Shown in pieces: positions 18,454 to 62,293 of a stretch of 64,000 bases of DNA. How positions within the stretch are numbered: the first letter of the stretch is position 1; each line of letters opens with the position of its first letter. A program made the position numbers and the translations under genes. The notes below the pieces were generated by a model. That model did no database searches. It saw only the letters and a program-made list of their open reading frames with translations, and was not told where the DNA came from. Source of the DNA: a virus; IMG/VR virus record IMGVR_UViG_3300025085_002722, positions 1 through 64,000 of that record. One strand, 5' to 3'.

Positions 18454-19188
18454 ATGAGTACATTATTAGCAATAGGCGATAGCCACACATTTGGGTCAGA
18501 GATATATGGCGAAGGCGATAATCGCCCTGAATCAATATACAAGGCTTACCCAGAGAAACTAAAACAACTATTAGAAATAGATGAATGTGTTAATCTAGGG
18601 CAACCTGGTGCTAGTATTATGCGAACTGAAAGACTATTAGTCGAATACTTAGCAGACAATCCCAAACCAGACTTAGTTATACTAGGTTGGACATGTTTAG
18701 GCAGATATGAATATGCTGACGGTTTTGATGATGACGGTTCGTATCATTATAATTTAGTGAACAGTTGGAGAGCACCAGAAATGGTAGAAGGCTCAGAAAG
18801 ATATGAAACTTATAAACAGTTTTTGCCTATCTGTTTAGCAGAAGACTTATTAGCACAAAAATATAGGGCAATGTATATATGTGAAAATATATGCAAAAAT
18901 AATAACATTCCATATCTAATGTTTGATGTAATGACAAACACAAAGGATGAAGCACCGCTAGAAGGCGAAGACGTAAAATTTTGGTCAGGTGATCATCCAG
19001 TTGATAAATCATTATATAAGGCAATAGATAAAAACAATTATATGGAAACAAGTTATTGGGACTGGATTATGAATGGCAAATTTCCAGAAGTTAAAATTAA
19101 CGGAGGCCATGCCAATGAAGCAGGGCACGAGAGATGGGCACAGAAACTAGTCGAAGAATTAAAAGAAAGGAATATATACGGAGTATAA
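18454..19188 (+). CDS. SGNH/GDSL hydrolase-like protein
   Basis: Block I AIGDSHTFG, NLGQPGAS, C-terminal GHANEAGHERWA. Confidence 0.78.
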   Translation: MSTLLAIGDSHTFGSEIYGEGDNRPESIYKAYPEKLKQLLEIDECVNLGQPGASIMRTERLLVEYLADNPKPDLVILGWTCLGRYEYADGFDDDGSYHYNLVNSWRAPEMVEGSERYETYKQFLPICLAEDLLAQKYRAMYICENICKNNNIPYLMFDVMTNTKDEAPLEGEDVKFWSGDHPVDKSLYKAIDKNNYMETSYWDWIMNGKFPEVKINGGHANEAGHERWAQKLVEELKERNIYGV

Positions 19189-20299: not shown

Positions 20300-20532
20300 C
20301 TGTAGATCTAGCATTAATAATTGAGACTTGGGAATGTGTCAAGCCTTCTGTAAACGTTAAAGAACGTGACGAGGTTTGTGCAAACTTAGTTAGAGTTTTT
20401 GATGAACACGGAATGGTCGACTATGATGAGGTGGGTATTAATGAATGTGATAAACATTTACGCCAAGCCATAGAAGAATATTTTGAAGTGGACTATCAAG
20501 ACGATGACGAAGAAGAGGAAGACTGGGATTAG
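20296..20532 (+). CDS. Small acidic hypothetical protein
   Basis: 78 aa; ATGA-coupled to uvsX. Confidence 0.7.
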   Translation: MTVDLALIIETWECVKPSVNVKERDEVCANLVRVFDEHGMVDYDEVGINECDKHLRQAIEEYFEVDYQDDDEEEEDWD

Positions 20533-20534
20533 TA

Positions 20535-20993
20535 ATGGCAGGATGGTATAACAAAGTTTCAGATAATTTAAGTAACATTGTAGATGCAATAGACTACTTT
20601 GAAGCAGAGTTAGAAGAGGCAAAAAAAGAGTGTTATATTAGAGGTAATGTGGAACGTAATAGTGCCGCATTACCTGGCATTACTGAACACAGGTTCAATC
20701 AATTACAAGAAATAGAAGCAATACTAGAACACATAAACATTCAATTGCGTAAAACACGCAGTAAAGTATTTAGAAACTTTTTGGAAAGTTACAACAGACA
20801 ATTAACCTCTAGAGATGCAGACAAATATGTTGACGGCGATGATGAAGTAGTTACACTGACATCATTGGCAAATCAATTTGGTTTGTTGAGAAACAAGTAT
20901 CTCGGTATAATGAAAGGATTAGACACCAAACAATGGCAGATAGGACACATAGTGAAATTGAGGACAGCAGGTATGGAAGATATATCAATTTAG
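20535..20993 (+). CDS. uvsY: Recombination mediator UvsY-like
   Basis: Helical 152-aa protein with SRDADKYVDGD and KGLDTKQWQI; lies between uvsX and uvsW. Confidence 0.75.
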   Translation: MAGWYNKVSDNLSNIVDAIDYFEAELEEAKKECYIRGNVERNSAALPGITEHRFNQLQEIEAILEHINIQLRKTRSKVFRNFLESYNRQLTSRDADKYVDGDDEVVTLTSLANQFGLLRNKYLGIMKGLDTKQWQIGHIVKLRTAGMEDISI

Positions 20994-21844
20994 ATATATT
21001 AGATGACTTACTTGAATCAATACACGAACTCAAAAACGACGACAAATTTGTACTATCACTCGACGAGTCTGTTGAGCCTACACTCGAAGATGTACTAAAA
21101 TCATATCTTAAATGGCATCAAATAAAAGTAATACCTAATGCAAAAGGTAACAATGTCTTTGCAACATTACATCAATCACCAAGCAGATTAGTACTAGAAT
21201 CAGAAGTAAATATTTCGTTTTCATATTTTTATGATAACCTAGAAAAAGATATTGACGTCTCTGATATAAGAAAAAATATACTTTCATTAACAGGATATTT
21301 TGATATTACATTTCAATCTACTAACAATGGCAATGATATATTTACAGCAATAATGACTGCAAGAGAGTATTTTAGACATAATATGTTAGCACATAAGGAT
21401 TGTGTTATTACTGTTAATAACGCAGATATGAATACAATAAATGCATTGTCAAATACTAATTCTACAGGACTTGCTGTAGGATTTAAAGATAACAAAATTG
21501 ACATTGAAACTCTTAAAACACATTGTGAGGAATCAGCAGAATTTATCTCTTGTATTATTTTACCAGACGACACAGAAAATGTTAAAGAAGTATGCGACTT
21601 AGTTAAGGACTATAATATTATAACAATTAAAATTGCATCATACGAAGATTTTTTAAGAGGTAAAGAACTGTACAACAACGGTGTTGACATCATTGTGTTT
21701 GGACCTGTAGCAACTATAGAAAAGTTGCATTATTATTTGCCATATCATAAGCAAGACAACACAGGATATTCATTAGGATTTGGTACAGTATCGCAATCAG
21801 GTTACAACAGAAGAAGCATAGAAATTTGTAAAAGTATACTATGA
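20933..21844 (+). CDS. Degenerate glycine decarboxylase (GcvP)-like protein lacking the PLP-lysine motif
   Basis: Colinear similarity by eye to the GcvP C-terminal half: LTGYFDITFQ, AREYF..HKDCVI, KIDIETLK, VKEVCDLV, GVDII, GPVATIEKLHYYLPYH. Start uncertain. Confidence 0.55.
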   Translation: MADRTHSEIEDSRYGRYINLDILDDLLESIHELKNDDKFVLSLDESVEPTLEDVLKSYLKWHQIKVIPNAKGNNVFATLHQSPSRLVLESEVNISFSYFYDNLEKDIDVSDIRKNILSLTGYFDITFQSTNNGNDIFTAIMTAREYFRHNMLAHKDCVITVNNADMNTINALSNTNSTGLAVGFKDNKIDIETLKTHCEESAEFISCIILPDDTENVKEVCDLVKDYNIITIKIASYEDFLRGKELYNNGVDIIVFGPVATIEKLHYYLPYHKQDNTGYSLGFGTVSQSGYNRRSIEICKSIL

Positions 21845-21849
21845 ATAGA

Positions 21850-21877
21850 TTGACAACACACATATATAATGTATAAT
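21850..21877 (+). promoter_or_regulatory. sigma70-type promoter for uvsW
   Basis: TTGACA, 16 nt, TATAAT, then 7 nt to ATG 21885; no SD. Confidence 0.72.
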
Positions 21878-21884
21878 AAATTTT

Positions 21885-23348
21885 ATGGCTAGACAAACAA
21901 GATTAGAAATAAGAGATGAAGTAAACATCAAGTTTCATGACTTAGACGTAGCCACACGCAGAAAACTATCTGACACTTGCAAATACTTCTTGCCATATGC
22001 ATATCACATGCCGGCATACAAACTAGGTCGTTGGGACGGCTATGTGAGATTTTGTGATGTTGGTGGCAGAAGTTATTTGAATCTTTTAGACCAACTTATT
22101 CCTGTAGTAACTGAATTAGGTTACGAAGTTGTACTTGATGATAAAAGAGAAAAATGGGATTTTGGTTTTGATGAAGTAAAGCAAGATACATATGAAGAAT
22201 TTAGTTGGCCTAAGAAACACCCTGCAGAAGGATTACCAATTATACTTAGAGATTATCAAGTAGAAATAATTAACAAGTTTTTAGCCAACCCACAATGTAT
22301 ACAAGAGATTGCCACAGGTGCTGGTAAAACACTAGTAACAGCCGCACTAAGTCATCAATGCGAGAAGTATGGTAGAACAATAGTGATAGTGCCTAATAAG
22401 GACCTTGTAACGCAAACAGAAGCGGACTACAAGCATTTAGGACTAGATGTTGGTGTTTTCTACGGGGACAGAAAAGAATACAATAAAACGCACACAATTT
22501 GCACTTGGCAAAGTTTAGAAATATTACACAAAAAGTCTAAGGCCAAAGAAGCAGTAGATTTTGATATAGGTGAATTCATTGACGGTGTTGTGTGTATTAT
22601 GATTGACGAAGTACACAAAGCAAAAGCAGATGTACTAAAACAATTACTTAGTAGTGTGTTTTCTAATGTGCCAATTCGTTGGGGATTAACAGGAACAATA
22701 CCCAAAGACCAGCATGAAGCAGTTGCAATGACTAGCACAATTGGTCCTGTAATTGGTCAATTAAGTGCAAAAGAATTACAAGACAAAGGTGTACTATCTA
22801 ACTTAGAAGTAAATGTTTTACAGTTAGCAGATACGCATGTAGGCTTTAGTAACTATGCACAAGAACTAAAATGGATAACAACCAATCCTGAAAGAATAGA
22901 ATTTATAAGTCAACTAATAAACGGCATGACGGACAATGGAAATACATTAATTTTAGTAGACAGAATAAAAACAGGCGAGTTGTTAATAGAACAAAACCCA
23001 GACTGGGTCTTTGTAAGCGGTGGCATGAAGCAGTCAGAAAGAAAAGAAAACTATGACGAAGTCAGTGAAGCAGAAGGCAAAGTAATTGTTGCAACTTATG
23101 GTGTTGCGGCAGTTGGTATTAACATACCAAGGATATTTAATTTAGTACTTATTGAGCCTGGTAAAAGTTTTGTTAGAGTTATACAAAGTATTGGTAGGGG
23201 TATAAGAAAAGCCAAAGACAAAGACTTTGTGAATGTGTTTGATATTACTAGCACATTAAAATACAGTAAAAAACATTTAACAGAAAGAAAGAAATTTTAC
23301 AGAGAAGCAGAGTATCCGTTTAAGGTTACAAAAATAGAATATATTTAA
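21885..23348 (+). CDS. uvsW: SF2 DNA helicase UvsW
   Basis: WDG, LRDYQ, ATGAGKT, IDEVH, GLTGT, GINIPRI, QSIGRGIR. Confidence 0.93.
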   Translation: MARQTRLEIRDEVNIKFHDLDVATRRKLSDTCKYFLPYAYHMPAYKLGRWDGYVRFCDVGGRSYLNLLDQLIPVVTELGYEVVLDDKREKWDFGFDEVKQDTYEEFSWPKKHPAEGLPIILRDYQVEIINKFLANPQCIQEIATGAGKTLVTAALSHQCEKYGRTIVIVPNKDLVTQTEADYKHLGLDVGVFYGDRKEYNKTHTICTWQSLEILHKKSKAKEAVDFDIGEFIDGVVCIMIDEVHKAKADVLKQLLSSVFSNVPIRWGLTGTIPKDQHEAVAMTSTIGPVIGQLSAKELQDKGVLSNLEVNVLQLADTHVGFSNYAQELKWITTNPERIEFISQLINGMTDNGNTLILVDRIKTGELLIEQNPDWVFVSGGMKQSERKENYDEVSEAEGKVIVATYGVAAVGINIPRIFNLVLIEPGKSFVRVIQSIGRGIRKAKDKDFVNVFDITSTLKYSKKHLTERKKFYREAEYPFKVTKIEYI

Positions 23349-24685: not shown

Positions 24686-25462
24686 ATGAGAGTATTAATT
24701 TTTGGTTTGCCAGGTAGTGGTAAAACATACTTGGCAGAACGACTAGTTGAATATTTAGGCGACAAAGTTGCTTGGTTCAACGCAGATAAAGTCAGAGAAG
24801 AAGCAGACGATTGGGACTTCTCTGAAGAAGGTAGATTAAGACAGAATCAGCGAATGTTGTCTTTGTGTGAAAACGCAGAAGCAGAAGGCAAGATTGCAAT
24901 CGCAGATTTTGTTGCTCCTTTTGAAAAGGCAAGAAATAATTTTAGTGCTGACTATGAAATATTTGTAGACACAATAAAGGAAGGTAGGTTTGAAGACACT
25001 AATAAAGTATTTGAAAGACCTTATGTGTCAGACTACAATGTACACGAACAACGTGGCGATGTAGATGCTAAAATAATTGCTTATGAAATTGGACAAAGAT
25101 TTATATGGGACAACCAAGCACCCACAACACAAATGCTTGGAAGATTTCAACCTTGGCATCCTGGGCACCAAGCATTGTTCGACAGAGCATTAGCAAAACA
25201 CGGACAGGTGTTTTTGATGGTTAGAGATATGCCAACAGATGAAAAGAATCCTTTTCCAGCATATGAAGTTATAGAAAACTTACAACAGAGTTTATATAAA
25301 TTTGCTGGCAAGGTAAAAATACAAGTTGTACCTAACTTGTTAAACATAACGTATGGTAGAGATGTTGGATATAAAATTGAGCAAGAAGTTTTTGACGATG
25401 CTATACACGATATCAGTGCTACTAAAATACGTGAACAAATGAGAGAAGAAGGAAAACTGTAA
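24686..25462 (+). CDS. APS-kinase-like P-loop domain fused to an HxGH nucleotidyltransferase
   Basis: N-terminal GLPGSGKT, NADKVR, FSEEGRLRQ and DFVAP; C-terminal GRFQPWHPGH, NPF and ISATKIR. Confidence 0.8.
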   Translation: MRVLIFGLPGSGKTYLAERLVEYLGDKVAWFNADKVREEADDWDFSEEGRLRQNQRMLSLCENAEAEGKIAIADFVAPFEKARNNFSADYEIFVDTIKEGRFEDTNKVFERPYVSDYNVHEQRGDVDAKIIAYEIGQRFIWDNQAPTTQMLGRFQPWHPGHQALFDRALAKHGQVFLMVRDMPTDEKNPFPAYEVIENLQQSLYKFAGKVKIQVVPNLLNITYGRDVGYKIEQEVFDDAIHDISATKIREQMREEGKL

Positions 25463-25785
25463 TGGCAGACGACCACGGTATGGCAACAGCATATCACTTA
25501 ATGAGAAAAATTACGCAATGGCACCATGATCGAAATCTTATTGATGGTGCAACAGACAAAGATCAATTAGCAAAACTCATACAAGAAATGGGCGAACTAA
25601 GTGACAATATTTGTAAAGGTAAAGACGTTGCAGACGACATTGGTGATATGATTGTTGTATTAATAAACATAGCAGAAAGGAACGGCCTTACTATAGAGGA
25701 CTGTTTAGAACAAGCATGGAATGATATCAAAGACCGTAAAGGTAAAATGGTAGATGGTATCTTTGTTAAAGAAGGAGATTTATGA
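25462..25785 (+). CDS. MazG-like NTP pyrophosphohydrolase
   Basis: KLIQEMGEL..DDIGDMIVVL..AWNDIKDRKG. Confidence 0.85.
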   Translation: MADDHGMATAYHLMRKITQWHHDRNLIDGATDKDQLAKLIQEMGELSDNICKGKDVADDIGDMIVVLINIAERNGLTIEDCLEQAWNDIKDRKGKMVDGIFVKEGDL

Positions 25786-26873
25786 GTTACGAATTTACAA
25801 GCGAAAGTGTCAGCATAGGACACCCAGACAAAATAGCAGACTTAATATCAGATGCTGTAGCAACATATTTGATAAATGGCAAACAAACACATAGAGCGGC
25901 TGTAGAAACATTAGTGACAACTAATATGGTTACACTAGCAGGTGAATACAAAAGCGATATGTTTGACAAGGCAGAGATTGAAAAAATTGTTAGAGACGTT
26001 GTTAGAGGTATTGGGTACGAACAAGAAGGCTTTCACTGGAAACATCTAAAAGTATATAATGAACTACACGGGCAGTCCCCAGATATTGCATTAGGTACAG
26101 ATGATTTTGGTGCAGGTGATCAAGGACTTATGTTTGGATATGCTTGTAATGAAACTCCTAATTATATGCCAAGTGCTATTCATTACAGTCACAAAATTCT
26201 AAAAAGACTTCAAGTAGAAAGAGAAGGCGGTGAAGACTGGATTGGACCAGATAGTAAAGCACAGGTAACAATGGCGTATGACAATGTAAATACACCAACA
26301 GGTATTACAAAAATTGTATGCAGTACGCAACATAATGATGATGTAAGTATTCAAATGGTACGTGATAGAGTTGAGCAAATTATTAGAGATGAAATCACAG
26401 ATCAAGATTTAAGTAATACAGAATTCTTAATCAATCCAACTGGTAGATTTGTTATCGGTGGACCAGATGGAGATACTGGACTTACTGGAAGAAAAATTAT
26501 CGTTGATACTTATGGCGGTTATGCTCCACATGGAGGTGGTGCTTTTTCAGGTAAAGACTGTACTAAAGTTGACAGAAGTGCGGCCTACATGGCACGTTAC
26601 TTGGCAAAGAATATTGTAGCAAGTGGTAAGGCAAATAATGCCACAGTACAATTAAGTTATGCAATTGGTGTAGTAGAACCAACTAGTTTGTATGTGTATG
26701 CAGACGGACAAGTAAGAACAGACTTAGTAGATTGGATTACAGAAAATGTTGATCTAACACCAAAAGGTATTATTGATAAATTTAATTTGTTTAGTTTAGA
26801 TTTAACTACAACCACATTATATGGGCACTTCGGAAAAGACAATCTTCCGTGGGAACAAATTGATTTATTTTAA
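25782..26873 (+). CDS. metK: S-adenosylmethionine synthetase
   Basis: FTSESVSIGHPDK, GAGDQGLMFGYA, DTGLTGRKIIVDTYGG, GGGAFSGKD, YGHFG. Confidence 0.97.
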   Translation: MSYEFTSESVSIGHPDKIADLISDAVATYLINGKQTHRAAVETLVTTNMVTLAGEYKSDMFDKAEIEKIVRDVVRGIGYEQEGFHWKHLKVYNELHGQSPDIALGTDDFGAGDQGLMFGYACNETPNYMPSAIHYSHKILKRLQVEREGGEDWIGPDSKAQVTMAYDNVNTPTGITKIVCSTQHNDDVSIQMVRDRVEQIIRDEITDQDLSNTEFLINPTGRFVIGGPDGDTGLTGRKIIVDTYGGYAPHGGGAFSGKDCTKVDRSAAYMARYLAKNIVASGKANNATVQLSYAIGVVEPTSLYVYADGQVRTDLVDWITENVDLTPKGIIDKFNLFSLDLTTTTLYGHFGKDNLPWEQIDLF

Positions 26874-27885: not shown

Positions 27886-28556
27886 GTTTAACTTGCACAT
27901 ATTGTAAAAAGACATTTATGAGTGAAAGAACTCTAAGTGCTCATATGTGCCCACAAAAAAGAAGGCACACAGATAAAGATTTAACTCATGTAAGATTAGC
28001 ATTCAGAACTTATCAAAAATTTTATGAAATAAACATGCATAATGCAAAGACAAAAACGTATGATGAATTTGCTGAAAGCAAATACTACACAGGTTTTGTA
28101 AAGTTTGGAAGAAAGATGGTTAAAGAAGATTTACTAGAGCCAAATAATTATGCAGAATGGTTAATTAGAGAAAGTGTTAAATTAGCAGACTGGACAAAAG
28201 ATGCAACATATGACGTTTACTTAAAAGAATTAATTAAAAAAGAACCTGCACAACGAGGCATAGAAAGAAGTGTTAAATGTATGCAGGCATGGGGAGAAGA
28301 GAAAAGTGAAGACTGGGCAGATTATTTTAGAAAAGTAGCACCACAACTAGCAGTCTATCACATAAGGGGTGGTAAAATTTCTCCATGGTTTTTATTCCTA
28401 AGCGAGAGCGGACAAGAACTATGGGGAAAGTTTAACAGTGAACAAGTTGAACTTATAAAGGATATTGCTGATCCAGGATTTTGGAAAAGAATATTTTTAA
28501 AAAACACAGAAGAAGTTAATCTAGTACAAGACATAGCGGAGGCGTCAGGATTATGA
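27882..28556 (+). CDS. Zinc-finger-containing hypothetical protein
   Basis: N-terminal CTYCKKTF..ERTLSAHMC. Confidence 0.7.
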   Translation: MSLTCTYCKKTFMSERTLSAHMCPQKRRHTDKDLTHVRLAFRTYQKFYEINMHNAKTKTYDEFAESKYYTGFVKFGRKMVKEDLLEPNNYAEWLIRESVKLADWTKDATYDVYLKELIKKEPAQRGIERSVKCMQAWGEEKSEDWADYFRKVAPQLAVYHIRGGKISPWFLFLSESGQELWGKFNSEQVELIKDIADPGFWKRIFLKNTEEVNLVQDIAEASGL

Positions 28557-29224
28557 ACGTAAAAATAGTAAGTCACAGCCAAGCACCATATAATGATGCT
28601 TTGCACAAACATTCAGCATTAGACTTAATAGCCTATTGCGCCAGGGTAAGTAACCCAAACAATCAAAATAATATAGAAACAAATGAAAAACTTGTGAAGT
28701 ATTTGATGAAACACAAACATTGGTCACCACTTGAAATGGTGTCAGCATGTTTGGAGATTGAAACAACCAGAGACATTGCACGTCAAATACTAAGGCACAG
28801 AAGTTTTAGTTTCCAAGAGTTTAGTCAACGTTATGCTGACCCTACACAGGATTTAAGTTTTGAAATCCGTGAGGCTAGATTACAAGATCTTAAAAATAGG
28901 CAGAACAGTATTAAAACAGATAACGAAGAGTTAGAATTAGAATGGAGACAAAAACAAGAGGATCTAATCAAACAAGCAACAGACACATATACTTGGGCAA
29001 TAGAAAACGGTATTGCTAAAGAACAAGCAAGGGCAGTATTACCAGAAGGTAATACAATGAGTAGAATGTATGTTAACGGTACGTTGCGTAGTTGGATTCA
29101 CTACATTGAATTACGTGGTGCTAATGGTACACAGCAAGAGCACATTGACATTGCTCATGCAGTAGCAGATGTGATAGCAAACATATTTCCACTTGCAGAA
29201 GAATTTAAAGGTAAAGAGATATGA
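28553..29224 (+). CDS. thyX: Flavin-dependent thymidylate synthase
   Basis: HWSPLE, RHRSFSFQEFSQRY, KEQARAVLP, TQQEH. Confidence 0.96.
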   Translation: MNVKIVSHSQAPYNDALHKHSALDLIAYCARVSNPNNQNNIETNEKLVKYLMKHKHWSPLEMVSACLEIETTRDIARQILRHRSFSFQEFSQRYADPTQDLSFEIREARLQDLKNRQNSIKTDNEELELEWRQKQEDLIKQATDTYTWAIENGIAKEQARAVLPEGNTMSRMYVNGTLRSWIHYIELRGANGTQQEHIDIAHAVADVIANIFPLAEEFKGKEI

Positions 29225-34483: not shown

Positions 34484-35267
34484 CGAAGTCATATTACGCG
34501 AAGAGGATAGTTTAGCAGACTATCAAAAAAAAGCACCTGCTAAAAAATGGAAAAACATTGTTAGTGATCCAGCATACTCTCATGTAGAATTTGAAGTTGA
34601 CGGCTATCCGTACAAAGGATATATAGACAATAAAGCCAATATATTTTATGTATATGACGAAAGGCAACAAGATTTTATTCCTGCAGATCCTTCTTTTACT
34701 AGAAGAGCATTTCAAAGAAACACATCAGCAAGAATTAAAAACCTATTAAACTTTAAAAGATGGGACGATGTTAAAGCATGGTGGGATGCCACTAATCAAG
34801 ATAAGCCAGGCGCAGGTGTTGCCGCTAGGTATCAAGATGACAACTGGTTTGTAAAAGGCATGGCAACAGTTGGAGCCAGAGCAGGTGGTAAATTAGATAA
34901 CTATATTAAAAATCGTAGAACTAATAAACAACAGGGCACTACATGGGAACAAGTGTATGGTGTCCAACCTCCAAAACCTGGTGATAAAATACAATGGAAA
35001 ACTAGCGATAATGTTTTAAAAACTGGTGAGTTTATACAATTTACAGCAGATTCAGACGGCGACGGAGTACCAGATGTACAAATAAAAGGATTCTTTAACC
35101 CAGATAACCCAAAACAATCAACTACAACAGGTATCCCTAGTAAAAAAATTATCAGTATTAACGGTGTTAAACTTGTAACACAAAAATTATCAGGTAAGCA
35201 AAAGAAAAAATTAACTACACTAGATCCTGCAGATTCAGGAATAGAAAAAATAGACACGAGTTATTAA
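34473..35267 (+). CDS. Putative capsid-internal protein (tag MKINEV)
   Basis: Start reassigned to ATG 34473; N-terminus MKINEVILRE. Confidence 0.65.
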   Translation: MKINEVILREEDSLADYQKKAPAKKWKNIVSDPAYSHVEFEVDGYPYKGYIDNKANIFYVYDERQQDFIPADPSFTRRAFQRNTSARIKNLLNFKRWDDVKAWWDATNQDKPGAGVAARYQDDNWFVKGMATVGARAGGKLDNYIKNRRTNKQQGTTWEQVYGVQPPKPGDKIQWKTSDNVLKTGEFIQFTADSDGDGVPDVQIKGFFNPDNPKQSTTTGIPSKKIISINGVKLVTQKLSGKQKKKLTTLDPADSGIEKIDTSY

Positions 35268-36535
35268 TGAGAGCAGTCGATCTTACTAAAGGATACTTAA
35301 CTGAATGTGTGATTCATCACAGACTAGATGAAAGCAAAAACACTCACCTTGAACATTTAGAAGATTTAATTTTTAATGACGGATTACCTGGAGGTAAACA
35401 AGCAATACAATACCTTCACAGTTTTCATGAGATGCTGAAAGGTAGTGCTAAAACAAAATTCAACTTAACAACAAAATGGGACGGTGCTCCAGCAGTATTT
35501 GTAGGTACAGACCCAGCAGACGGTAAGTTTTTTGTAGGTACTAAAAGTGTATTCAACAAAAGAAATCCATTAGTAAACAAAAGCATCGAAGACATCAAAG
35601 CAAATCACGAAGCAGAAGGCTTACAAGAAAAATTAATTAGTGCATTTATGCATTTACAAAAATTAAATTTTAAAGGAAAAGTTGTACAAGGAGATTTACT
35701 GTACACAGACGACAGCATATCAGAAGCAAATATCAAAGGCGAAGAATTTATAGTGTTTAAACCAAACACAATTATATATGCCATTCCTAAAAACAGTAAT
35801 CTTGCAAATGATATTCTACGTTCAAAAATAGGCATAGTGTTTCACACAGAATATGTTGGCGGTGGCGGATTAGCAGACTTGTCAGCAAAGTTTGGGTTCG
35901 ACGCAAGTAGTTTAGGCAGTCACCCTGATGTCTGGCACAGAGATGCAATCATAAGAGACTACTCAGGGCAAGTTACTTTTACACAAGAAGAGTCACAAGA
36001 AATGGCTGAACTAATTAACAATGCAGATCAAAACTTGAAAGCAGTTACAGATTTAGACTTTCTTAAAAATAACGAATTTGGTGATGATTTAAGAACAAGA
36101 ATCAAAGCAAGTGTAAATAAAATTATCAGAGAATTAGTAGGTTTCGAACAAGATCCAAAAGTATTTGCTCAAAGATTTATTGCAGAGTATAAAGGCACAC
36201 TCAAATCAGCAGTTGAAAAACTAAAAAGTGATGACGGTAAAGTAAGAAAAACAAAATTAATGATAGACGGTATTAAATTTTTAGAAAGCAACCAAGAAGA
36301 GATAGAAAAAGCATACGTTGTGTATTTAGATTTGATCAAAGCAAAAGAAATGATAATTAAAAAATTAGCAAACATAAGACAAATAGACACGTTTGTACAA
36401 AACCAAGAAGGCGACTATGATGTTACAGGTGAAGAAGGCTTTGTTGCTGTTGATCATATTGGAAACGCAATTAAATTAGTTGACAGATTAGACTTTAGTG
36501 TTAAGAATTTTGGTACAGGGAGACCAGGAGCATAA
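35267..36535 (+). CDS. Conserved phage protein with RNA-ligase-like (covalent nucleotidyltransferase) motifs
   Basis: KNTHLEHLED, TKWDGAP (motif I KxDG), VQGDLL, EEGFV, IKLV. Confidence 0.6.
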   Translation: MRAVDLTKGYLTECVIHHRLDESKNTHLEHLEDLIFNDGLPGGKQAIQYLHSFHEMLKGSAKTKFNLTTKWDGAPAVFVGTDPADGKFFVGTKSVFNKRNPLVNKSIEDIKANHEAEGLQEKLISAFMHLQKLNFKGKVVQGDLLYTDDSISEANIKGEEFIVFKPNTIIYAIPKNSNLANDILRSKIGIVFHTEYVGGGGLADLSAKFGFDASSLGSHPDVWHRDAIIRDYSGQVTFTQEESQEMAELINNADQNLKAVTDLDFLKNNEFGDDLRTRIKASVNKIIRELVGFEQDPKVFAQRFIAEYKGTLKSAVEKLKSDDGKVRKTKLMIDGIKFLESNQEEIEKAYVVYLDLIKAKEMIIKKLANIRQIDTFVQNQEGDYDVTGEEGFVAVDHIGNAIKLVDRLDFSVKNFGTGRPGA

Positions 36536-39030: not shown

Positions 39031-39309
39031 ATGAGAATAGTTGAAGTAGAAGGAGTAATGGAGGCCAAAATGGTCTGGGCCAAGCGAGGCAGTAAAATTG
39101 TTCGTAAGGTCAGATGTACTAGTGGCCCACGCAAAGGCAGAATGGTGTCTAATGCAGGTCAATGCTCAAAACCTATCAACTTAAAAAAACGCATGACGCT
39201 CAAAAAGACCAGAGCAAAAATGGGTAGAAGAATGGCAAGGAGAGCCGCAAGAACAAAAAGGCGTAATCCAGTTAGCAAAAGAGTTGCAAGGCTTAATAGA
39301 AGAAGATGA
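39031..39309 (+). CDS. Small very basic protein (tag MRIVEV)
   Basis: K/R-rich 92 aa; RCTSGPRKGR..C. Confidence 0.7.
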   Translation: MRIVEVEGVMEAKMVWAKRGSKIVRKVRCTSGPRKGRMVSNAGQCSKPINLKKRMTLKKTRAKMGRRMARRAARTKRRNPVSKRVARLNRRR

Positions 39310-42300
39310 AACTAGCAGACTTATACGAATATAACAAAGGAATACAAGACCCAAATTCCAACGCAAAACAGTCAAATAAAAATGACGACGAAATGGAATT
39401 GGAGCCATTCACACCTGACCAAGAAAAGGAAGTAGCAAAAGGTTTTAAGGCACTAGGAGCCAAGTTAGGTCAGCCTATACAAAATCCTAAAATGGCCGCC
39501 AAAGGCATAAACAAGGCCATACAAGGCGACAAGCCAACACCACAGCAATTACAATCAAAATTACCAATTGATGTACAATTAACAAAAGCAATGCAGACTC
39601 CTGCATTGAGAAATCAATTAGCAAACATACTTAAAAAAGCAAACCAAATAGACATCGACGAAAACACCCTTGCTAAAAAAATATTAAAAAAATTAACAGG
39701 TAAAAAAGCACTAACAAAATTCAAAAGAAGATCTAAACTACTCAAAGAAGCAGATCCTACATTATGCGAAATAAATTTTAATAAAAAAGAAATAGTAAAA
39801 GGTTCGTTGGAACTGCCTATAAAATGTGGATTTGAAGCAGAAACATTTTTCTATTCAGTAGAAAGCAGTGGCGCCAGTGACGATGTAGACAACATGAGTA
39901 TCAGTGATATCGAATACGAATACGGTGATATGCCAGATAGTGCATATGAAGATTATCAGTCCTGGTTGTACACTAAAGGGCAAGATGAATACTTAGATGA
40001 CTTAATTACAGACAAAGTAAACGAAGTCAAAGAAGATGAAGACTGGTTAAACGAGTTTATTGACAGTAGCGATGGCCCAAGTTCAGAAGCAATAGAACAA
40101 TACAAAAAAGATTTTGAAGACGCCGATCCCAAAGAATATGAAAACCGTGAAGAAGATGGTTGGGAGTATATGAATTGGGTCAGAGAATATGTTGAAGAAG
40201 AATATGAAAACGAATATTTGATATGGTTAGAGGATGCTGTCAGAGAAGACAGCGACCTAGATCAAGAAGCCAAAGAACTTGCTGAAGGTGATTACAGCAT
40301 GGATGATTGGGTAAACGATACCTATGATTACATGAGTAGTTTCCTCGATGATTATGGTTTTGATTACAGTAGGTCAGGCGGTGATGTTGAAGGTGTAGCA
40401 GATGAATTAAATAACTGGATTAAAGATAATAGTAAATTTACAGACTATCCAGATTCAGGGGAATACGGCGAAACAAATACTACAACTGCTTGGTCAGTTG
40501 AGACTGACAGCAGTATAGATCCGGACGAAGGTGCCGGCGCAGAACTTATTTCTCCTGTATTTGATAGTCCAAGAGATATGCTTGAAGAAATGAAAAGTTT
40601 ATTTGACTGGAGCGAAACAAACTTTGGCACAAACAATTCCACAGGACTACATGTAACAATGAGTTGGCATGGTAAAAATCCTGATACAGTACAAGATGAA
40701 GACGGCGAATTTTGGGGAGATGAACCATCAGGACCAAACAAATTAAAAATGGCATTACTGTTAGGTGATGAATATTTACTTGCAGAATTTGGCAGGTTAA
40801 AAAACAGTTACACAAAAAGTCAATACAATAATGTATTAAAACATGCAGAAGGCATGAAACGTGGTGAGGCAAAAAGTTTTAAAGAATTTGAAAAGATACT
40901 CACAAAAGGCATAGACACTGGCAAGTTTAACAGTATACATTTTAAAAACGAAAAAGACAGAATAGCAGGAACCAATCTTGTAGAGTTTAGAATTGCCGGC
41001 GGTGCAAATTACAATGAAATGTATGAAAAAGTTGTTAAAGCAGTTATTAGATACGCAACTATCATGCAAGCCGGATATGAAAAAGACGCATATAAAAGAG
41101 ATTATGTTAATGCTGTGTTCAGGCTTTTGCGTAAATCACAAGAAATAGACCCTAAAAGATTAAAAGCATTATCAGTTGTTAATCACGAAGTTATAGACTC
41201 TGCTAAAAATATAGTAGGTAAAAAAGACTACTTTGATGTTATTAATTTTTTAAGCAATAGTGTTGAAAGTTTGAGATATTATGAAGAATTAAGCAAACCA
41301 GGTGCTGACAAAGAATGGTTAAAAAGTGTTAAAGAATATGAAAAAAATACTGGTACAAAATTAGATATAAAAGAAGTAGAAGAACGCGAACCAATAGAAG
41401 GTTATTTACAGCCAGACAGAATCAGACCAAGCAAAGGTGCGGCAAGCGAATTAAAAAAAGCACAAGAAAAATTTGCATCGGCTGTTACTATAATAGCAAG
41501 AGATATAGCAGACGGTAATAACAGAAGTACTGTTTCAGCAAAAGATATAGGCGCATTTAGAAAATATGCAAATTTAGTTAAGTTAGATGATAAAGAATTA
41601 GAAAAAATTGTCATGACAAAAATGGATGATTTTAACTGGGGTGATCCTGATAAAAGCAATATTAACAGATTGAAAAAAGGTATAGATACTTTATTCAAAA
41701 GAAATATAATTTCAGAACCAGAATATCTTACACCGCAAGATGCTGACAGGATTGCTACAGGTATGTGGCAATTTTATCAAACAGACGATGTAAAAGACAA
41801 TGCTAAAACTGACAAACTTGCAGAATTATTCATGCAATTAAATCCAAAAAATGATAAACCTAATGTTGTAGATATATTAAAAGATTTAATGCATGAAAGA
41901 CAACAAAATGGATTTAGTGCTAAACTAAAAGGCTCAGGTTGGAATACCGGTATTACTTTGATAGGCACAGGAAAAATTACCACACCAGGAGCATCTGCAG
42001 AATTATTAAAATTCTTAGAACCATATAGTGGTTACAAACACCCAACCGGCAAACAGCATCATATTAATATCAAAAGCGATGACCCTTATGCATCTGTGTT
42101 TGACATGAGACTTCGACAACGTTTAAGAGAAAGATTAGTACATATAAGAGAGTTAGAAACAGACGATCCAGAAAAAGCAACTAAACTACAGCAACAATTA
42201 GTCAAAATTGGACTTGAATTATTAGAAGGCCTAAAGCCTAGACCAGATCTTTGGGATGAAGATGATGACGGATTCGCCCAAATTAGACGGGGTAATGATG

Positions 42301-45300
42301 GAACAGCAGATTTGGCTTCACATAGTGATTTAGAACGTTGGAATAATACTATGGACAGGATTGTAAAATTAGAAAGTGAACTAACATCAAGCGATAAAAC
42401 ATATAATTTTTTTAGTGCGTATGACGACTATATTTTAGGTGTTATACATTTAGATAGATATTATTCTTGGAAAGAAAACAACGGACCTACGCAACATGCT
42501 GTTTTGAAAAACTTACACAAAGAAAGATTTGCATCAATTAAAAAATTCTTATCAGAATTTGATAAAGTATTCCGCAAAGAAGGCTTCTTGGATTTAAAAG
42601 CAGAAATACAAGCAAAAAATACATTAGATAGAAGAAATAGAGACTTTGAAAAGAATGTCAGAGATAATTCAAAAGGAAAACTAAACATACCAAGTCACAG
42701 TTGGATGTACATAGACAAAGACTTTTTTGATACAATAACAGATAAAAGTTATGGTGATAGAGAAGCATATTTAGATAATCATATAGACAACTTTAACAAA
42801 AATGTAAACAATACCAAAGTGTATGTTATACCTTCAAGTCACTGGAGTGATGCCGAAGATGCCACAAACGGTTTAGAACTTATAGATACATTTGAAAAAA
42901 ACAAAAACTATTATCACACTTGGAGAAAGAAAAATTATAAACGAGTAATCAACAAATTCCAGAACACATATGGGTATAGTTGGAAAAATTTAACCGACAA
43001 CGAAAAGTTTTATTCAGGCAACGGAGACTTGTATGCAAAACTCAAAGACATTGGTATCGAAATCACTCACAAAGGCGACAGTAGAAAAGGTGCACCTGGT
43101 CAAACAGATTTACTGTCAGACGAATTAACTAAGAATCCTACCAGCGGTGAACCACTAAACAGAAGTAGTGCAACAAGTTGGTCATTGAACAACGACGAAG
43201 CAAGCCAAAAACAATTTGATGCATTTGATTGGGAACAGTACCCAGCAAAAATGAAAGATATTGTTGCTAAGGTTATGAAGCAAGATCGATATGGTAGTTT
43301 TAAAGTAGCATTAGAAGATGTACTTAGAAAAGTTTTAGATGGTAAAGTGTCAATAGACAAAGAAGATTTAGGAAGACCTATAGACAGAATGGCGAATGCG
43401 GCAGGCATTGAAACAGACGATGGTGGTTCCTCAAACGGTATAGCAAGTAAAACAAATTGGAAAACTTTATCAGACTACTTAAAGATTGAAAGAGGTGTAA
43501 ATGATCAAGGTCCAAACTTACTTTTAAAAGTTTATAATCAATTTGATGGCAATCACGAATGGAGACCTCAAGAAACCGACGAGGATGGTAGAGACGTAAT
43601 TGGATTAAAAAGATGGGCCGCCGCAGTTAAAGAAGCAGAAAAATATATCAGAGACAACTACAATGTAAGTGGAGGAAACTACTTTAGAAAGAATGTAGAT
43701 GGCAGTGACGGCGACAATGTAAGCAGTATGTATAGTAATAATACAATATCAACATCACCAGAAAATGAGTTTGATTCAGATTACGACAAAGCCAGAGCAG
43801 ACCATCCAGGCTTTGATAGAATGATGAATCGTGGTATGCAAAATTACTTAGCACGTGGCGAAGTAAATGACCTAGTAGGATTTTTAAACAATCCAGACAA
43901 TGATAATGTTTTCAAATCGCAGGTTTTAAATACTATAACGAATCGAGGTGATATGGAAAACGGTCCTTTTGCTACTTTCCAAGATGCATTAGCAGTTACT
44001 CGTAGACAAGGCAATGAAAGTGTATTTGATAAATTTGATGCATTGCCTTTACAAGAACAGTTGCGTATTATAAATCAATCAAATGTATTAGAAAAATTTA
44101 CTGAAAGAAAATTATCTAAAGATGAAAAAGAAGACAAAGAAAAATACGTCAAAGGCATGAAGAAAAACAAAAAAGGTTTCAAAAAAAGATATGGAGATGA
44201 CGCAGAAGCAGTAATGTATGCAACCGCAACTAAGATGGCAAAGGAAAATAAAATAAATACTAATATGAAAAATGTTTTTGAACAGTTTGAAAATTTATCA
44301 CTAGAAAAGCAATTAGAAATATTGCACAGTCCTGTAGTAGAAGGATTTTTCAGTGACGTAGATGTTGACATGAGAGAGTTGTCATACAAAGCATTTGCTA
44401 AAAAATATCCAGAATACGCACATTTACATCCTGGTGCAGAAGAGTTATCTACAAAGCCAATCAAAATGAAAAAAGCACCTTACAATAAAGAACAGCATAT
44501 CAAGAACACATTTGCTAAATTTAAAAGAGACCACGGCGAAGCAAAAGCAAAAATAATGTTGGATAAAATGATGCAGAGAGGATACTTTGATAAGGACATG
44601 TCAGAAAGTTTACTGGGCATTGATATTTTAACCAGAACTAAAAAACTCACAGAAAATATGCCTAACAATAATAAATTAGCAATACTAAGAAGATTACTGT
44701 CAAGAACTTTTCCTGTAGGTGACTTAGATATGCAATTCCAAGCATATTTAGCCTTGCCAATACCAAAAATGATGACAGCATTTAGTCAATTAAAAAGCAT
44801 AAAAGGACCAGATGCATGTGCAAGGGATATACTTAGGCATTATGCAAAAAATAGATTACCAGATGCAGAAGTAAAGCAACTTGATCTCAATGAAAGTTAT
44901 ATTAGAGAAGATGCAGATGAAGACAGATTAAACAGTATAATGACTGCATTAGAAAATAATCCAAGTTTTGCAAAACGAGTTTACAAAATGTTAAAACTTG
45001 ATAAAGAATCAGCAGACCATTTGGACATCGAAGATAGACTTAAAAATAATGACACCGGTAAGGAAAACGATCATAGAATTAACAAGAATATCATGAGACA
45101 ATTAGTTACCTCTTTAGAACAACTAGATCATGATTTTGATGAATTAAATTCATTTGTTGAAACTTACGGACACACAGATTATGTAAACACAGAATTATTA
45201 AACAAGTCTGGTGTATTTAAAATTTCAGATATGCTGGTTGGTAGCGACACAGTATCTAAAGAATTTATAGATGATCTTTATGAAAAATTATTTGACTTTA

Positions 45301-45974
45301 GAATTAATATTTCTGGATCAAACAGAGGGCCAGGTGAACTTGGATTATGTTTACTGTCACCTAATGTAGAACTTGCTTCGGTAGGTGATATCAAAGTTAA
45401 TGGCGAAGAAATAGAAGTTAAAGGTGAGGTATCGTCAGGTGGCGGTAGAATGGTTAACGGTATTGACGACTTTAAGTTTAGTGGATTAGCACAGGTCAAA
45501 TCACAACTAGTACCATTTTATGAAAAGCATGATATTCCAGAAGAATTAAGAATTTACAATTTAAAAGGTGCAGTTGGCGGAGGCCGTAATCAGGGTCAGG
45601 CTCATATACTAGATCAAGCACAACAATTAGAACAAGTAAAACAAGGTGTAGGTGCTGAATTTTTAAAATTAATTGTTAGCACATATCAATTTGTTATTGA
45701 CTCAGAAGAAGAAGCAGAATTAACAGGTTCATTTATGAATATGGATAAGACTAGGTTCTTAACACTTGTAGGATTAATGTCATTTAAAAATTATGCATAT
45801 ATGTTAAACAAAAAAGGATTCAATAGATTAATATTTTTAAATTGGAGATATGATAAAGTAGTAAATTGTACAACAGAAGAATTTCCAAAATACAGTGAGC
45901 ATTTAGCATTTACAAGTTTAGATATGGCAGACAGTCAAAATGGTCCAGCAGTACAGGTATCAGTGTTAAAATGA
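39306..45974 (+). CDS. Giant multi-domain protein: amidoligase (COOH-NH2 ligase)-like domain plus C-terminal PD-(D/E)xK-like domain
   Basis: 2222 aa. [29 protein letters not shown] and VEFRIAGG; C-terminal GPGEL...[14 protein letters not shown]; N-terminus MKLADLYE. Confidence 0.78.
44253..44267 (+). promoter_or_regulatory. Internal late promoter with in-frame ATG
   Basis: ATAAATA(44253-59)-ctaat-ATG(44265), in frame with the 2222-aa ORF. Confidence 0.5.
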
Positions 45975-47791
45975 GATTATACGAAGTAACTAAACCTGGA
46001 CAATGCCCAAGAACAAAAGCAACCGAATGCAGTTGCGAAAGGCTAAGGCAATTATCAGAAGCAGAAAAGCCTATAAAAGCAGTTGCAGTACTAGAACACG
46101 GCGATGCTAAAGGCATAATTAATTTTGTACAAAAGCCAGGTAAAGCAACAATTATTAGCGGTACTATTAGCGGTTTAACAGAAGGGTTACATGGATTTCA
46201 CATACACGAATTTGGTGATCTCAGTGATGGGTGCGATAGTGCAGGTGGTCATTATAATCCGCATGGTGTCGATCACGGCGATGTAGATAATGGACATATA
46301 GGCGACTTAGGAAATATAGAAGCCAACAGCAAAGGTGTAGCAGAATTTAAAATAAAATCCAAAACAATTCAATTACAAGGTGCTACAAGCATAGTTGGTA
46401 GAGCAGTTGTAGTACACGAAGACGAGGACGATTTAGGTAAAGGTGGTGACGAAGAAAGTTTAAAAACAGGCAACGCAGGTAACAGAGCAGGCTGTGGTGT
46501 AATAACATTATCTGAATTAACAGAATCAGCAATAGCAGATTTAGATAAAAATATAAGCGACAAACATTTCAAAAGAAATGAAATGCCGCAAGTTAAAGAA
46601 CCAGATTTAATAGATAATGAAATACCTTACAAAAAAGGCAAAATAAGTATAGTAAATATCAAACCAGTTCAAACAGATAGAGTACCAGGATTAGCACAAA
46701 AAGTTGCAAAAAACTTTCACGGCAAAGACAAGCCTTTTATACTAGACAAAAACAATTACTTAGTTAACGGACATCATAGATATGATGCGGCTAGATTACT
46801 GGGCATAGAAAAAGTAGATGCAATTAAAGTAGATGTGCCAATTGAATTATTAATGAAAAAATTTAGCCATACAACTAGTGATGCAATGGTCGAACATTTA
46901 AGTGACAAAGCATCGACACCAGAGATACATAACAAAGCATTACAAATGGCCAAAGATGCATACAGAAAGTCTAATGAGCAAATATCATTTACTAAATTAT
47001 ATGATAAAGCATTAGAAATTTTAGAACCTGCAAAAGTAGACGAAAACTTTGCAGACGGTAAGAAGAAAGGTAAAAGTCGTCCAGGCAGAGTTAAAAAAGC
47101 AGGAGCCAGTTGTAAAGGTTCTGTAACAAGTTTAAGAGCAAAGGCTAAAAAGTATAGTGGTGAACGTGGTAAAATGTATCACTGGTGTGCTAACATGAAA
47201 GGTGGCAAGAAAAAGAAAAATGAATCATTATTAGTATCAACATTTGATAATGAGTTTGTGAAAAAAGCAAAAGAATTATACAACGCAGGCCAACAAGGTC
47301 AATTGATTAGACACATATATAAATTTTCTAAAGAAAATTCAGAAAGAATACATCAAAAACCAGAACTGAAAAAGATGCTACAAGATATTTTTTATGAAGT
47401 ATCAGATAATTTTCAAGACGAGGATCAAATAGAAGAACTGCTATTCATAATAGATGATACATTGAGCAACCCAGTCAATGAATCAGCATTTGAAAATTTA
47501 AAATTACCAACTTGGATATCACATACCAGTTTAGAAAAATTATTTGCACAAGAGTACGGTCCTAGATACGGTGACTATGTTGCACATATGGATCTAGACA
47601 GTGACGACGACTTGGCAATGAATGCCAGTGGCATGGGCGATATGGCTTTTGAAATGGTTAAAGCAAATGACATTAAAGTTATGCAAAAATTCTTAGCACA
47701 AATGCCTGTGCAGTTCACAGTAGATGACCTTAGATTAGATAAAGGTATTCAAGTTTGGCATCTAGTTCAACAAAACAAAACGGTACATTAA
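45971..47791 (+). CDS. Multi-domain protein: Cu/Zn superoxide dismutase, ParB/Srx-like domain and small basic module
   Basis: [38 protein letters not shown] and [12 protein letters not shown]; then [17 protein letters not shown]; N-terminus MRLYEV. Confidence 0.88.
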
Positions 47792-60525: not shown

Positions 60526-62226
60526 ATGGCTGTTAAATCATATATCGTATCGTTTGAACACGAACACATAGATGGTGATTCTGTTTCTTTTGACCAGTCT
60601 GCAACAGAAACTGCACTTACGGGTGCAGGTGCAACAATAGATAGTAGTTTTGATCATGCTAAGTCTGGTATGTATAAAATTAGTATCGACGAGACTAACA
60701 TAAGTAGCATTTCATCACTAACAGGTTACGTTGCATCAGAGAATGTAACGGACCAAGCAGATGCCACACTATTAATTAGTGAAGCAACAAGCGAATGGCA
60801 CAAACAAAGAATAGTAACTAGAAACTTACCACTAAGAACAACTTTTGACCCTGTATATACAGGAAATAACTCAGTAGTATATCTAATGGACAGTGGTGTT
60901 GACCAAGGTCACCCAGAGTTCTCAGGAAAAAGTTTTGAACCTATATATTCAGTAATGGAATCACCCGGTGGATTTGCTGAATTTATAGAAGACGGCAACG
61001 CCGGTACAGATTTTGATACATCAGACAAACACGGTCATGGAACAGCAATGGCTAGTTTAATCAATGGTGCTACATACGGTGTAGCCGGAGATGCCACAAT
61101 AGGAATTGTTAAAATTTCCGACCCTTCAGTAGATGGCGGTGCTATCAAATTAGAAAATGTACTAAATGCCTTTAAAGCAATAAGATTAGCAGACATTAAC
61201 TTTCTTGATGAGGGTGGGTCAACTTATACTAATGCACCAACTGTATGCATGGCATGGAGTTTTCCAAAATCACAAGTACTAGACAGATATGTTTCCTTAA
61301 TGCAAAATCGCGAAGGCTTCTTAATGGTTGCCGCGGCAGGTAACAACGGTGGAGATGTTGATAATTATTCACCAGCAGGCATTAACGAAATTTTAACAGT
61401 AGGCGCAAGTGACAGTTCAGATAACGTACCTTCATTCTCAAATGATGCAGGTGCTATCGTAGAACAAGGTACTGGACTACAAACAAACGGTGGTGAAGAA
61501 GTCGATGTATTTGCTCCAGGTGTTGCAGTAAACTATGCAGACATCAGCAATAGATTAAATGACAGCGATTACACAGGCGTTACAGGCGATGATCTAAAAA
61601 CTACAGGTAGTGGAACAAGTATATCTTGTGCCATAGTTGCAGGTATGGGTGCTATGTCTTCTGAAAGATTTGGAAGTAGTAGAGCAACAGGAAATGCACT
61701 CAAAGAACTAGTTATTGAACAATCATTAACTGGACTACTTTTCCAAGATCCAGGATTATACAGCAGTACACCAAATAACATCGTGTTTGCAGAAAACGAA
61801 TATTATGCAACTGTATGGAATACAGCCGCTGGTAACTTAGGAGACTTTTTACTTACAGGTGCTGGCGATATTGATATTAGTTTAGATGTTGCTAATACTG
61901 TAACAGAAATTACTAGTTCAGAATTTGCCGCAATGCCACCAGCATTAGAATTAAATGGTAATGCGTCAACCGGTTGGAATATTACAGCAAATACCAGTGT
62001 AACAGGTACTATGAGTAATACAACAATATATAACTTTATTCTAACTGCAACTAAAAGCGATAACACAAAATATAACAGACACTTTTCAGTAAGTTTATTT
62101 GGTGGTAGCGAAATTACAGAAGACGAAAGAACTGCAGGTAATGAAACATACTTTGTAAACGACGGCGGAACATTAAGTGAAGTTGTTTATGGCTCAGGTC
62201 AGTATGCAGGTAGACAGTTAAAATAA
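60526..62226 (+). CDS. Subtilisin-like S8 serine peptidase with prodomain and C-terminal beta extension
   Basis: Catalytic triad LMDSGV, HGHGT and SGTSIS; oxyanion AAAGN; VDVFAPG. Confidence 0.93.
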   Translation: MAVKSYIVSFEHEHIDGDSVSFDQSATETALTGAGATIDSSFDHAKSGMYKISIDETNISSISSLTGYVASENVTDQADATLLISEATSEWHKQRIVTRNLPLRTTFDPVYTGNNSVVYLMDSGVDQGHPEFSGKSFEPIYSVMESPGGFAEFIEDGNAGTDFDTSDKHGHGTAMASLINGATYGVAGDATIGIVKISDPSVDGGAIKLENVLNAFKAIRLADINFLDEGGSTYTNAPTVCMAWSFPKSQVLDRYVSLMQNREGFLMVAAAGNNGGDVDNYSPAGINEILTVGASDSSDNVPSFSNDAGAIVEQGTGLQTNGGEEVDVFAPGVAVNYADISNRLNDSDYTGVTGDDLKTTGSGTSISCAIVAGMGAMSSERFGSSRATGNALKELVIEQSLTGLLFQDPGLYSSTPNNIVFAENEYYATVWNTAAGNLGDFLLTGAGDIDISLDVANTVTEITSSEFAAMPPALELNGNASTGWNITANTSVTGTMSNTTIYNFILTATKSDNTKYNRHFSVSLFGGSEITEDERTAGNETYFVNDGGTLSEVVYGSGQYAGRQLK

Positions 62227-62240
62227 AATATTTTTTATAA

Positions 62241-62270: not shown

Positions 62271-62293
62271 GACCGCACAAAATAAATACTACT

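Follow-up and report, generated by a model that had tools for sequence, protein, structure and literature searches.

What does a phage protein do when it keeps the fold of a metabolic enzyme and discards the residues that hold the cofactor? This question is raised by an open reading frame (ORF) in IMG/VR virus record IMGVR_UViG_3300025085_002722, of which we analyzed positions 1 to 64,000 (hereafter, the window; 64,000 nucleotides, nt). An initial annotation, made from the DNA letters, had described the ORF as an eroded homolog of glycine decarboxylase (GcvP) from which the catalytic lysine loop was deleted. We refer to the product of this ORF as GcvPL. We find that GcvPL residues ~106 to 303 are homologous specifically to the large domain of the beta half of GcvP, and that the gene is kept by purifying selection while its amino-acid change far outpaces that of the neighboring core genes. 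We propose, with a probability that we put at roughly 60%, that GcvPL performs no glycine decarboxylation dependent on pyridoxal 5′-phosphate (PLP) and acts as a noncatalytic binding or scaffold protein, probably via a remodeled cleft.

Results

A domain shared with the beta half of glycine decarboxylase

A phmmer search of PDB sequences with GcvPL alone returned E. coli GcvP first (9uz6_A, E = 0.0031), followed by human GLDC, while profiles of the family found GcvP at E = 4.9e-6 (12 close relatives) and at E = 3.8e-6 (17 members from two deep clades). When the family was aligned with E. coli GcvP (K-12) by hhalign, the match reached a probability of 95.5% (E = 1.6e-8) and consisted of a single collinear alignment, in which GcvPL residues 113 to 300 lie on GcvP residues 547 to 762, i.e., on the C-terminal half only. 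Collinear positions along this alignment include LTGY, H-x-D-C, NID, SCI, EVC, G-x-D, GP, LP, and G-x-VS, and the segments that the initial annotation had paired with GcvP (LTGY..., HKDC, NKIDIETL..., EVC, GVDI, GPVAT..LP, and GTVSQ) are the ones that hhalign aligns. In an NCBIfam scan of the 17 members, GcvPB (11 of 17, best E = 2.7e-6) and gcvP (8 of 17, best E = 3.7e-6) were the most-matched families, with every score far under the curated cutoffs (16.7 bits versus 859.2 for TIGR00461 gcvP and 12.1 bits versus 441 for NF003346 GcvPB). The GcvP homology that had been proposed is thus borne out by hhalign, with phmmer, the profiles, and NCBIfam in agreement, and our sequence searches returned no family other than GcvP for GcvPL. 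Pfam GDC-P (PF02347) gave no match at E ≤ 1 with the protein or at E ≤ 10 in a six-frame search of the record, and Pfam and PHROG searches of GcvPL returned matches at chance level only (Hpr_kinase_N at E = 0.073; phrog_2961 over 17 residues). GcvPL defines a phage protein family without a Pfam or PHROG entry.

The predicted structure led to the same enzyme. An AlphaFold2 model of GcvPL, built from the 17-sequence alignment, had a mean predicted local distance difference test score (pLDDT) of 76.9, with values above 85 over most of residues 180 to 260. In a Foldseek comparison of this model, the first eleven matches shown (ranks 1 to 10 and 12) were all GcvP, at E values of 6.9e-11 to 1.5e-9, and included the T. 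thermophilus beta subunit. VIA-align likewise placed GcvP at ranks 1 to 10 (Z = 18.8 to 21.7; root mean square deviation, rmsd, 2.4 to 2.9; 190 to 202 residues), followed at rank 11 by tryptophanase as the next family (Z = 16.3). On 1wyu_B, model residues 102 to 303 superimposed on residues 94 to 334 with Z = 20.0 and an rmsd of 2.6 over 198 aligned residues. Sequence identity between GcvPL and GcvP in the structural alignments was 14 to 20%. A PLP fold-type I domain with GcvP as its top match is what the initial annotation had expected such a comparison to yield.

Loss of the cofactor-binding features of GcvP

Between I253 and I254 of GcvPL, 17 residues of E. coli GcvP (703 to 719, HLNLHKTFCIPHGGGGP) have no counterpart in the hhalign alignment, and this gap is common to 17 of 17 aligned members. 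The Schiff-base lysine of E. coli GcvP, in the H-K-T/S-F loop, is presumably K708. In the GcvPL model, the gap is closed by a tight hairpin, in which strands 253 to 255 and 259 to 261 flank an FGP turn. The lysine segment LHKTF..PHGGGGPG, which had been reported as missing, is indeed cleanly deleted. A second gap in the same alignment drops STHGVY from the GcvP active-site loop T-Y-P-S-T-H-G.

In GcvP, the histidine of SAHGTNP stacks on the PLP ring, the aspartate of LDGAN binds N1, and the S-G-A loop binds the phosphate. The SAHGTNPAS segment had been thought absent as well; we find it at full length in diverged form, as NNADMNTIN, with the histidine position occupied by A164 and variable within the family. 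The aspartate position is I234 in GcvPL and E or Q in clade 2 (one of the two clades described below), next to a K233 that is invariant in 17 of 17 aligned members, and the phosphate loop reads N-N-G and is not conserved. GcvPL ends at the equivalent of residues ~762 to 771 of 957 in E. coli GcvP and of residue 334 of 473 in 1wyu_B, and the whole C-terminal small domain, which the P-protein needs for its lipoyl-arm channel, is absent from it (hhalign and VIA-align).

Judged by these alignments, GcvPL would be unable to bind PLP in the way that GcvP does. Its homology to GcvP, its loss of catalytic residues, and the purifying selection described below would mark it as a pseudoenzyme, the inactivity itself being predicted; the missing lysine loop, the replaced histidine and aspartate, and the GcvP fold support the pseudoenzyme reading of the initial annotation. 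The STHGVY deletion, the loss of the small domain, an N-terminal domain that is not of GcvP type, and a 61-nt overlap with uvsY are additions to that earlier description.

Purifying selection on a rapidly diverging protein

Relatives of GcvPL come from marine metagenomes and form two clades, one at 70 to 98% identity to it (clade 1; 302 to 314 amino acids, aa) and one at 30 to 35% (clade 2; 306 to 309 aa). IMG/VR contains 29 loci of clade 1 and 12 of clade 2 on 40 distinct contigs, L018 and L044 being on the same contig. Of these loci, six are cut by contig ends and 35 cover the gene fully, 34 of the latter with an intact ORF of 300 to 309 aa. The sole broken copy (L027:6001-6911) has a one-base frameshift near codon 139 that could be a sequencing error. 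Sixteen (16) studies contributed marine metagenome runs in which the window stretch was detected. By tblastn at E ≤ 1e-5, none of 50,697 GenBank phage records contained a relative, and the ESM Atlas, where the GcvPL sequence is present, yielded neither a usable neighbor nor a model. Longer or fused forms were sought with the family alignment among the 8000 candidates sharing the most words, a weak search that found none at E = 0.01 or better.

Pairwise Nei-Gojobori estimates gave a ratio of nonsynonymous to synonymous rates (dN/dS, or omega) of 0.07 to 0.21 for clade 1 against the window copy and of 0.19 to 0.36 within clade 2. Both domains of GcvPL are constrained (omega of 0.06 to 0.27), and 41 columns are invariant across the two clades. 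These data bear on the possibility that GcvPL is what remains of a captured gcvP fragment that has no function and is decaying, in line with which every tested cofactor motif is lost, GcvPL has diverged more than any other syntenic gene, and the relative in L027 is frameshifted. A within-clade dN/dS of 0.07 to 0.36, a length of 300 to 309 aa in 34 of 35 loci, and 41 invariant columns over two deep clades argue against such decay, which we consider extremely improbable. The same dN/dS values and intact ORFs speak against the description of the gene as eroded, and the neutral decay among homologs that the initial annotation had named as a finding at odds with its reading was not seen.

Between the clades, identity to the window copy was 31 to 35% for GcvPL, as compared to 88 to 92% for UvsY, 86 to 89% for UvsW, and 80 to 98% for UvsX (at least 90% in 10 of 11 cases), which makes GcvPL the most diverged among the shared neighborhood genes. 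The between-clade dN was 0.65 to 0.73 for GcvPL versus 0.016 to 0.125 for gp32, uvsX, uvsY, uvsW, and orf167. Divergence at this pace would be more readily explained by an accessory role facing the host than by a core role in recombination.

The conservation that remains between the clades is unevenly distributed along the protein. In blocks of 20 residues, the identity of the clade consensus sequences was 30 to 60% over residues 141 to 300 and 0 to 20% over residues 21 to 100. The conserved blocks (HKDCVITVNNAD, NKID..HC.ESAEFI, K..SY, and GVDI..FGP.AT..L..YLP) correspond in the hhalign alignment to the strands and loops that bear active-site residues in GcvP. In fold-type I enzymes, the active-site face of the large domain also forms the subunit interface. 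Because the conserved blocks would line this old active-site face, we take the remodeled cleft as the most likely working surface of GcvPL, where either another protein or a small ligand would bind.

The same conservation would also be expected if GcvPL were an enzyme or a small-molecule binder, with a catalytic, metal, or ligand site rebuilt in the old PLP cleft from invariant K233, H197/C198, D156/C157, S236/Y237, and N162. All of them are kept without change in both clades, whose shared identity is 30 to 35%, and the between-clade conservation is focused on residues 141 to 300, the strands and loops of the GcvP active-site residues. Ten residues are invariant in 17 of 17 members and absent from GcvP, namely E145, H149, T160, N162, H197, C198, S201, K233, S236, and Y237. 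Yet no family or structure match points to another chemistry, D156 and C157 are common to E. coli GcvP and so may be structural, and K233 aligns with a leucine of the GcvP strand that bears the aspartate, a position taken as buried. On these grounds, we judge a rebuilt site to be improbable.

A distinct N-terminal domain

The region preceding the GcvP-like domain has a separate character. Residues 1 to 16 are predicted to be disordered (pLDDT below 50) and lie inside the uvsY overlap, and the following domain is built of helices 20 to 33 and 49 to 62, a strand at 40 to 43, and four further strands. Modeled alone, this domain had a pLDDT of 64.4, and a comparison with 48,161 PDB chains gave a best Z of 5.3, at which a fold assignment was not reached. 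The two clades are barely alignable across it, except at K60 and W61. A homodimer prediction for GcvPL scored 0.00 in both runs, which were made without controls and are uninformative on the oligomeric state.

Position between uvsY and uvsW

The coordinates, strand, and 303-codon length that the initial annotation gave for the ORF, and its placement between uvsY and uvsW, all hold (Table 1); the helicase downstream, which starts after a spacing of 40 nt, also matches PHROG 16 (E = 1.6e-75) and, weakly, UvsW_N (E = 0.023). The ATG at 20933 is the sole canonical start upstream of codon 141, the next in-frame ATG. A later start was rejected and the ATG at 20933 was kept because the alternative lies as far downstream as codon 141 and relatives of either clade start with MA[DN]R. 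Over GcvPL residues 1 to 20, which fall within the uvsY overlap, dS was 0.00 to 0.10 in 7 comparisons.

Table 1. Features of GcvPL and its immediate neighbors in the window.
Feature	Position	Strand	Basis or remark
GcvPL ORF	20933..21844	+	303 aa plus stop; predicted GcvP-derived pseudoenzyme; relatives 300-314 aa
Overlap of 61 nt with uvsY 3′ end, other frame	20933..20993	+	Encodes GcvPL residues 1-20
N-terminal alpha/beta domain, residues ~17-105	20981..21247	+	No detectable relative
PLP fold-type I large domain, residues ~106-303	21248..21841	+	hhalign and VIA-align to GcvP C-terminal (beta) half
N162-N170, NNADMNTIN	21416..21442	+	Counterpart of GcvP SAHGTNPAS (hhalign, HMMER)
Junction D213/T214, second deletion	21569..21574	+	6-residue hhalign gap
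K233-I234	21629..21634	+	I234 aligns with Asp of GcvP LDGAN
Junction I253/I254, lysine-loop deletion	21689..21694	+	17-residue hhalign gap; DSSP of model
UvsY-like recombination mediator, upstream of GcvPL	20535..20993	+	PHROG 231, E = 5.4e-16
UvsW-like helicase, downstream of GcvPL	21885..23348	+	ResIII, E = 9.8e-20; Helicase_C, E = 7.6e-12

The virus record comprises 130 kb, estimated to be ~25% complete, and carries T4-type gp32, UvsX, UvsY, UvsW, TerL, and tail sheath genes, together with ribonucleotide reductase (RNR), ThyX, and MetK. The UvsX and terminase of the window are nearest to those of jumbo myoviruses such as Phosso, Atu_ph07, XaC1, and PA5oct (58 to 67% identity). The order uvsX, orf78, uvsY, GcvPL, uvsW is common to all GcvPL loci that reach both sides, and the 61-nt overlap recurs in every locus where both ORFs are listed. 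Among the four RNA runs compared, RNA-library contigs of two samples cover parts of GcvPL at 90 to 99% identity; one of 1178 nt extends from 20300 to 21317, through the uvsY overlap, and another bridges the end of GcvPL into uvsW. Stretches of GcvPL left uncovered in an individual run are not informative. These are assembled contigs in which DNA carry-over is possible, and they therefore give a mere hint of co-transcription. uvsY and GcvPL are probably translated from a shared mRNA.

The slot between uvsY and uvsW is nevertheless variable. An ORF of 353 to 361 aa is present or absent between GcvPL and uvsW in both clades and is absent from the window (21844 to 21885), and Phosso, a jumbo phage, has three unrelated ORFs in the corresponding gap. 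One of the genes of Phosso, a 500-aa ORF at the equivalent position, was considered as a GcvPL relative and rejected (hhalign probability of 0.2%). Copies of the 353- to 361-aa ORF lie at L008:2979-4064 and L032:6923-7993, which are 47% identical between the clades, and in the same slot of L009, L010, L022, L024, and L035 to L040; the copies tested had no Pfam or PHROG match. Elsewhere in this neighborhood, a GDSL/DUF6071-like esterase gene (18454-19188, +) sits between gp32 and uvsX and has counterparts of 52 to 53% identity in clade 2.

This setting could suggest that GcvPL assists the UvsX/UvsY/UvsW recombination-replication machinery as an accessory factor, for which the GcvP fold would serve as a scaffold. 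The placement is fixed in the loci that reach both sides, the overlap is kept, and one contig from an RNA library runs across the junction of uvsY and GcvPL. The dN of GcvPL, however, is 5 to 40 times that of uvsX, uvsY, and uvsW, which would be unusual for their partner, and neither the Pfam scan nor the structure comparison of the N-terminal domain revealed a DNA-binding signature. Since unrelated genes fill the Phosso gap and an esterase gene stands between gp32 and uvsX, gene order in this region is no guide to function. We consider a recombination role very unlikely.

One-carbon genes and the host glycine-cleavage system

The window contains several genes of one-carbon and nucleotide metabolism, with MetK at 25782-26873 and ThyX at 28553-29224, both as mentioned in the initial annotation, in addition to RNR and a deoxynucleoside monophosphate (dNMP) kinase. 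Given this investment of the phage in users of nucleotides and one-carbon units, GcvPL might be a decoy of the host glycine-cleavage system that docks on the alpha half or subunit of the P-protein, or on lipoyl-GcvH, and thereby blocks glycine decarboxylation and alters the supply of glycine and methylene-tetrahydrofolate (methylene-THF) during infection. The specific descent of GcvPL from the GcvP beta half and the use of the fold-type I large domain as a subunit interface are in line with this scenario. Several observations run counter to it: with only 14 to 20% identity to GcvP, interface residues need not persist; less methylene-THF would be left for ThyX if glycine cleavage were blocked; and gcvH, gcvT, and serine hydroxymethyltransferase (SHMT) were not found in the 130-kb record, which is ~25% complete. 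GcvPL also lacks the small domain, which forms part of the lipoyl-arm channel, and simple capture of GcvH is for this reason less likely. Overall, we regard a decoy as unlikely.

A search of the record for GDC-P, a GcvP alpha half or subunit, GcvH, GcvT, SHMT, or a GcvPL paralog found none of them, which is weak evidence because the record is incomplete. A more specific version of the decoy scenario is in our estimate quite unlikely: here, the lysine-less mimic would act as a dominant-negative partner, docked on the P-protein of the host or on its alpha subunit, and would shut down glycine cleavage during infection. In such a case, the fast-evolving N-terminal domain would tune GcvPL to different hosts.

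Other genes in the window

Several further genes in the window, all on the plus strand, deserve mention. The first (25-555, 176 aa) matches an adenylate/guanylate cyclase catalytic domain (E = 4.2e-16) and could be a phage nucleotide-signaling gene. Among the structural genes, a small ORF at 12225-12665 matches a TnsA-like endonuclease N-terminal domain (E = 6.8e-21) and may encode a homing-type nuclease. The product of 24686-25462 (258 aa) combines an N-terminus resembling the P-loop of adenosine 5′-phosphosulfate kinase with a cytidylyltransferase-like C-terminus, and its gene is followed by those for MazG, MetK, and a phosphoribosyltransferase. A strong match to DUF6267 (E = 1.2e-102) is found at 35267-36535, past the genes for the primase and the DnaB-like helicase. 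A 606-aa protein (45971-47791) contains a Cu/Zn superoxide dismutase domain at residues 47 to 178 (E = 6.3e-44) and a long unannotated remainder, its gene coming directly after a 2222-aa ORF (39306-45974). Finally, a cluster at 60526-63779 encodes a subtilase, a GNAT acetyltransferase, and a radical-SAM protein.

Discussion

We favor a history in which GcvPL would have descended from the GcvP beta half and retained solely its PLP-binding large domain. Loss of the lysine loop, of the second loop, and of the cofactor ligands would have removed the chemistry and left the fold, to which an unrelated N-terminal domain of ~90 residues would have been joined, and binding would then take place at the remodeled cleft. 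Several points weigh against this proposal of a noncatalytic binding protein. The between-clade omega of GcvPL, 0.39 to 0.53, rests on saturated dS and is not to be over-read as a measure of constraint. The clustering of the invariant residues on the old active-site face is deduced from the alignment with GcvP and is thus a predicted one. The ten invariant residues that are absent from GcvP may together create a novel catalytic or metal site, in which case GcvPL would be a different type of enzyme, and a recombination role would likewise agree with the fixed place beside uvsY in 40 of 40 loci.

The evolutionary case of GcvPL is clear and unusual. Auxiliary metabolic genes of phages are usually taken to encode working enzymes, whereas in GcvPL a metabolic fold appears to have been kept over a long period with its chemistry stripped, in a lineage of widespread marine phages seen in 40 IMG/VR loci. 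The case warns against labeling such matches gcvP. As a small and soluble-looking protein with clear invariant residues, GcvPL is tractable for questions about viral pseudoenzymes. If its target were the host glycine-cleavage system, this would be a novel way for viruses to control metabolism, and if the dominant-negative version were true, control over one-carbon and glycine metabolism would be exerted by mimicry of a subunit and not by a supplied enzyme.

As to precedents, a full-text literature search, with supplements outside its scope, found no paper on a phage GcvP-like protein; a portion of PMC11515562 deals with gcvH in archaeal prophages. The general fold is shared by other viral PLP fold-type I enzymes in BFVD (NifS-like proteins, sphingosine-1-phosphate lyase, and aminotransferases; Foldseek E = 7.4e-7 to 1e-3). 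Those proteins, however, are full-size, are annotated as enzymes, and show far weaker similarity to GcvPL than GcvP does, and none of the 50 BFVD matches listed is of GcvP type or a truncated form of it.

The closest known system is the C-terminal half of GcvP, or GcvPB (9uz6, 6i33-6i35, 4lgl/4lhc/4lhd, and chain B of 1wyt/1wyu), which has the same fold-type I large domain. Unlike these proteins, GcvPL is without the lysine loop, the STHGVY loop, the histidine and aspartate, and the small domain, has an N-terminal domain of its own, and has no gene for an N-terminal half or alpha partner beside it in the ~25% complete record. GcvPL is a relative of GcvP by descent and, by family cutoffs, lysine, histidine and aspartate, and small domain, not a member of the family. 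A second comparison is offered by the N-terminal half of GcvP (the alpha subunit), which is likewise of fold-type I, lacks the lysine, and has a structural role as a partner. GcvPL differs from it in aligning with the C-terminal half only and in standing alone in a phage genome; like it, GcvPL is a lysine-less fold-type I domain, and we propose that it, too, may have been retained for a noncatalytic, interface-forming role.

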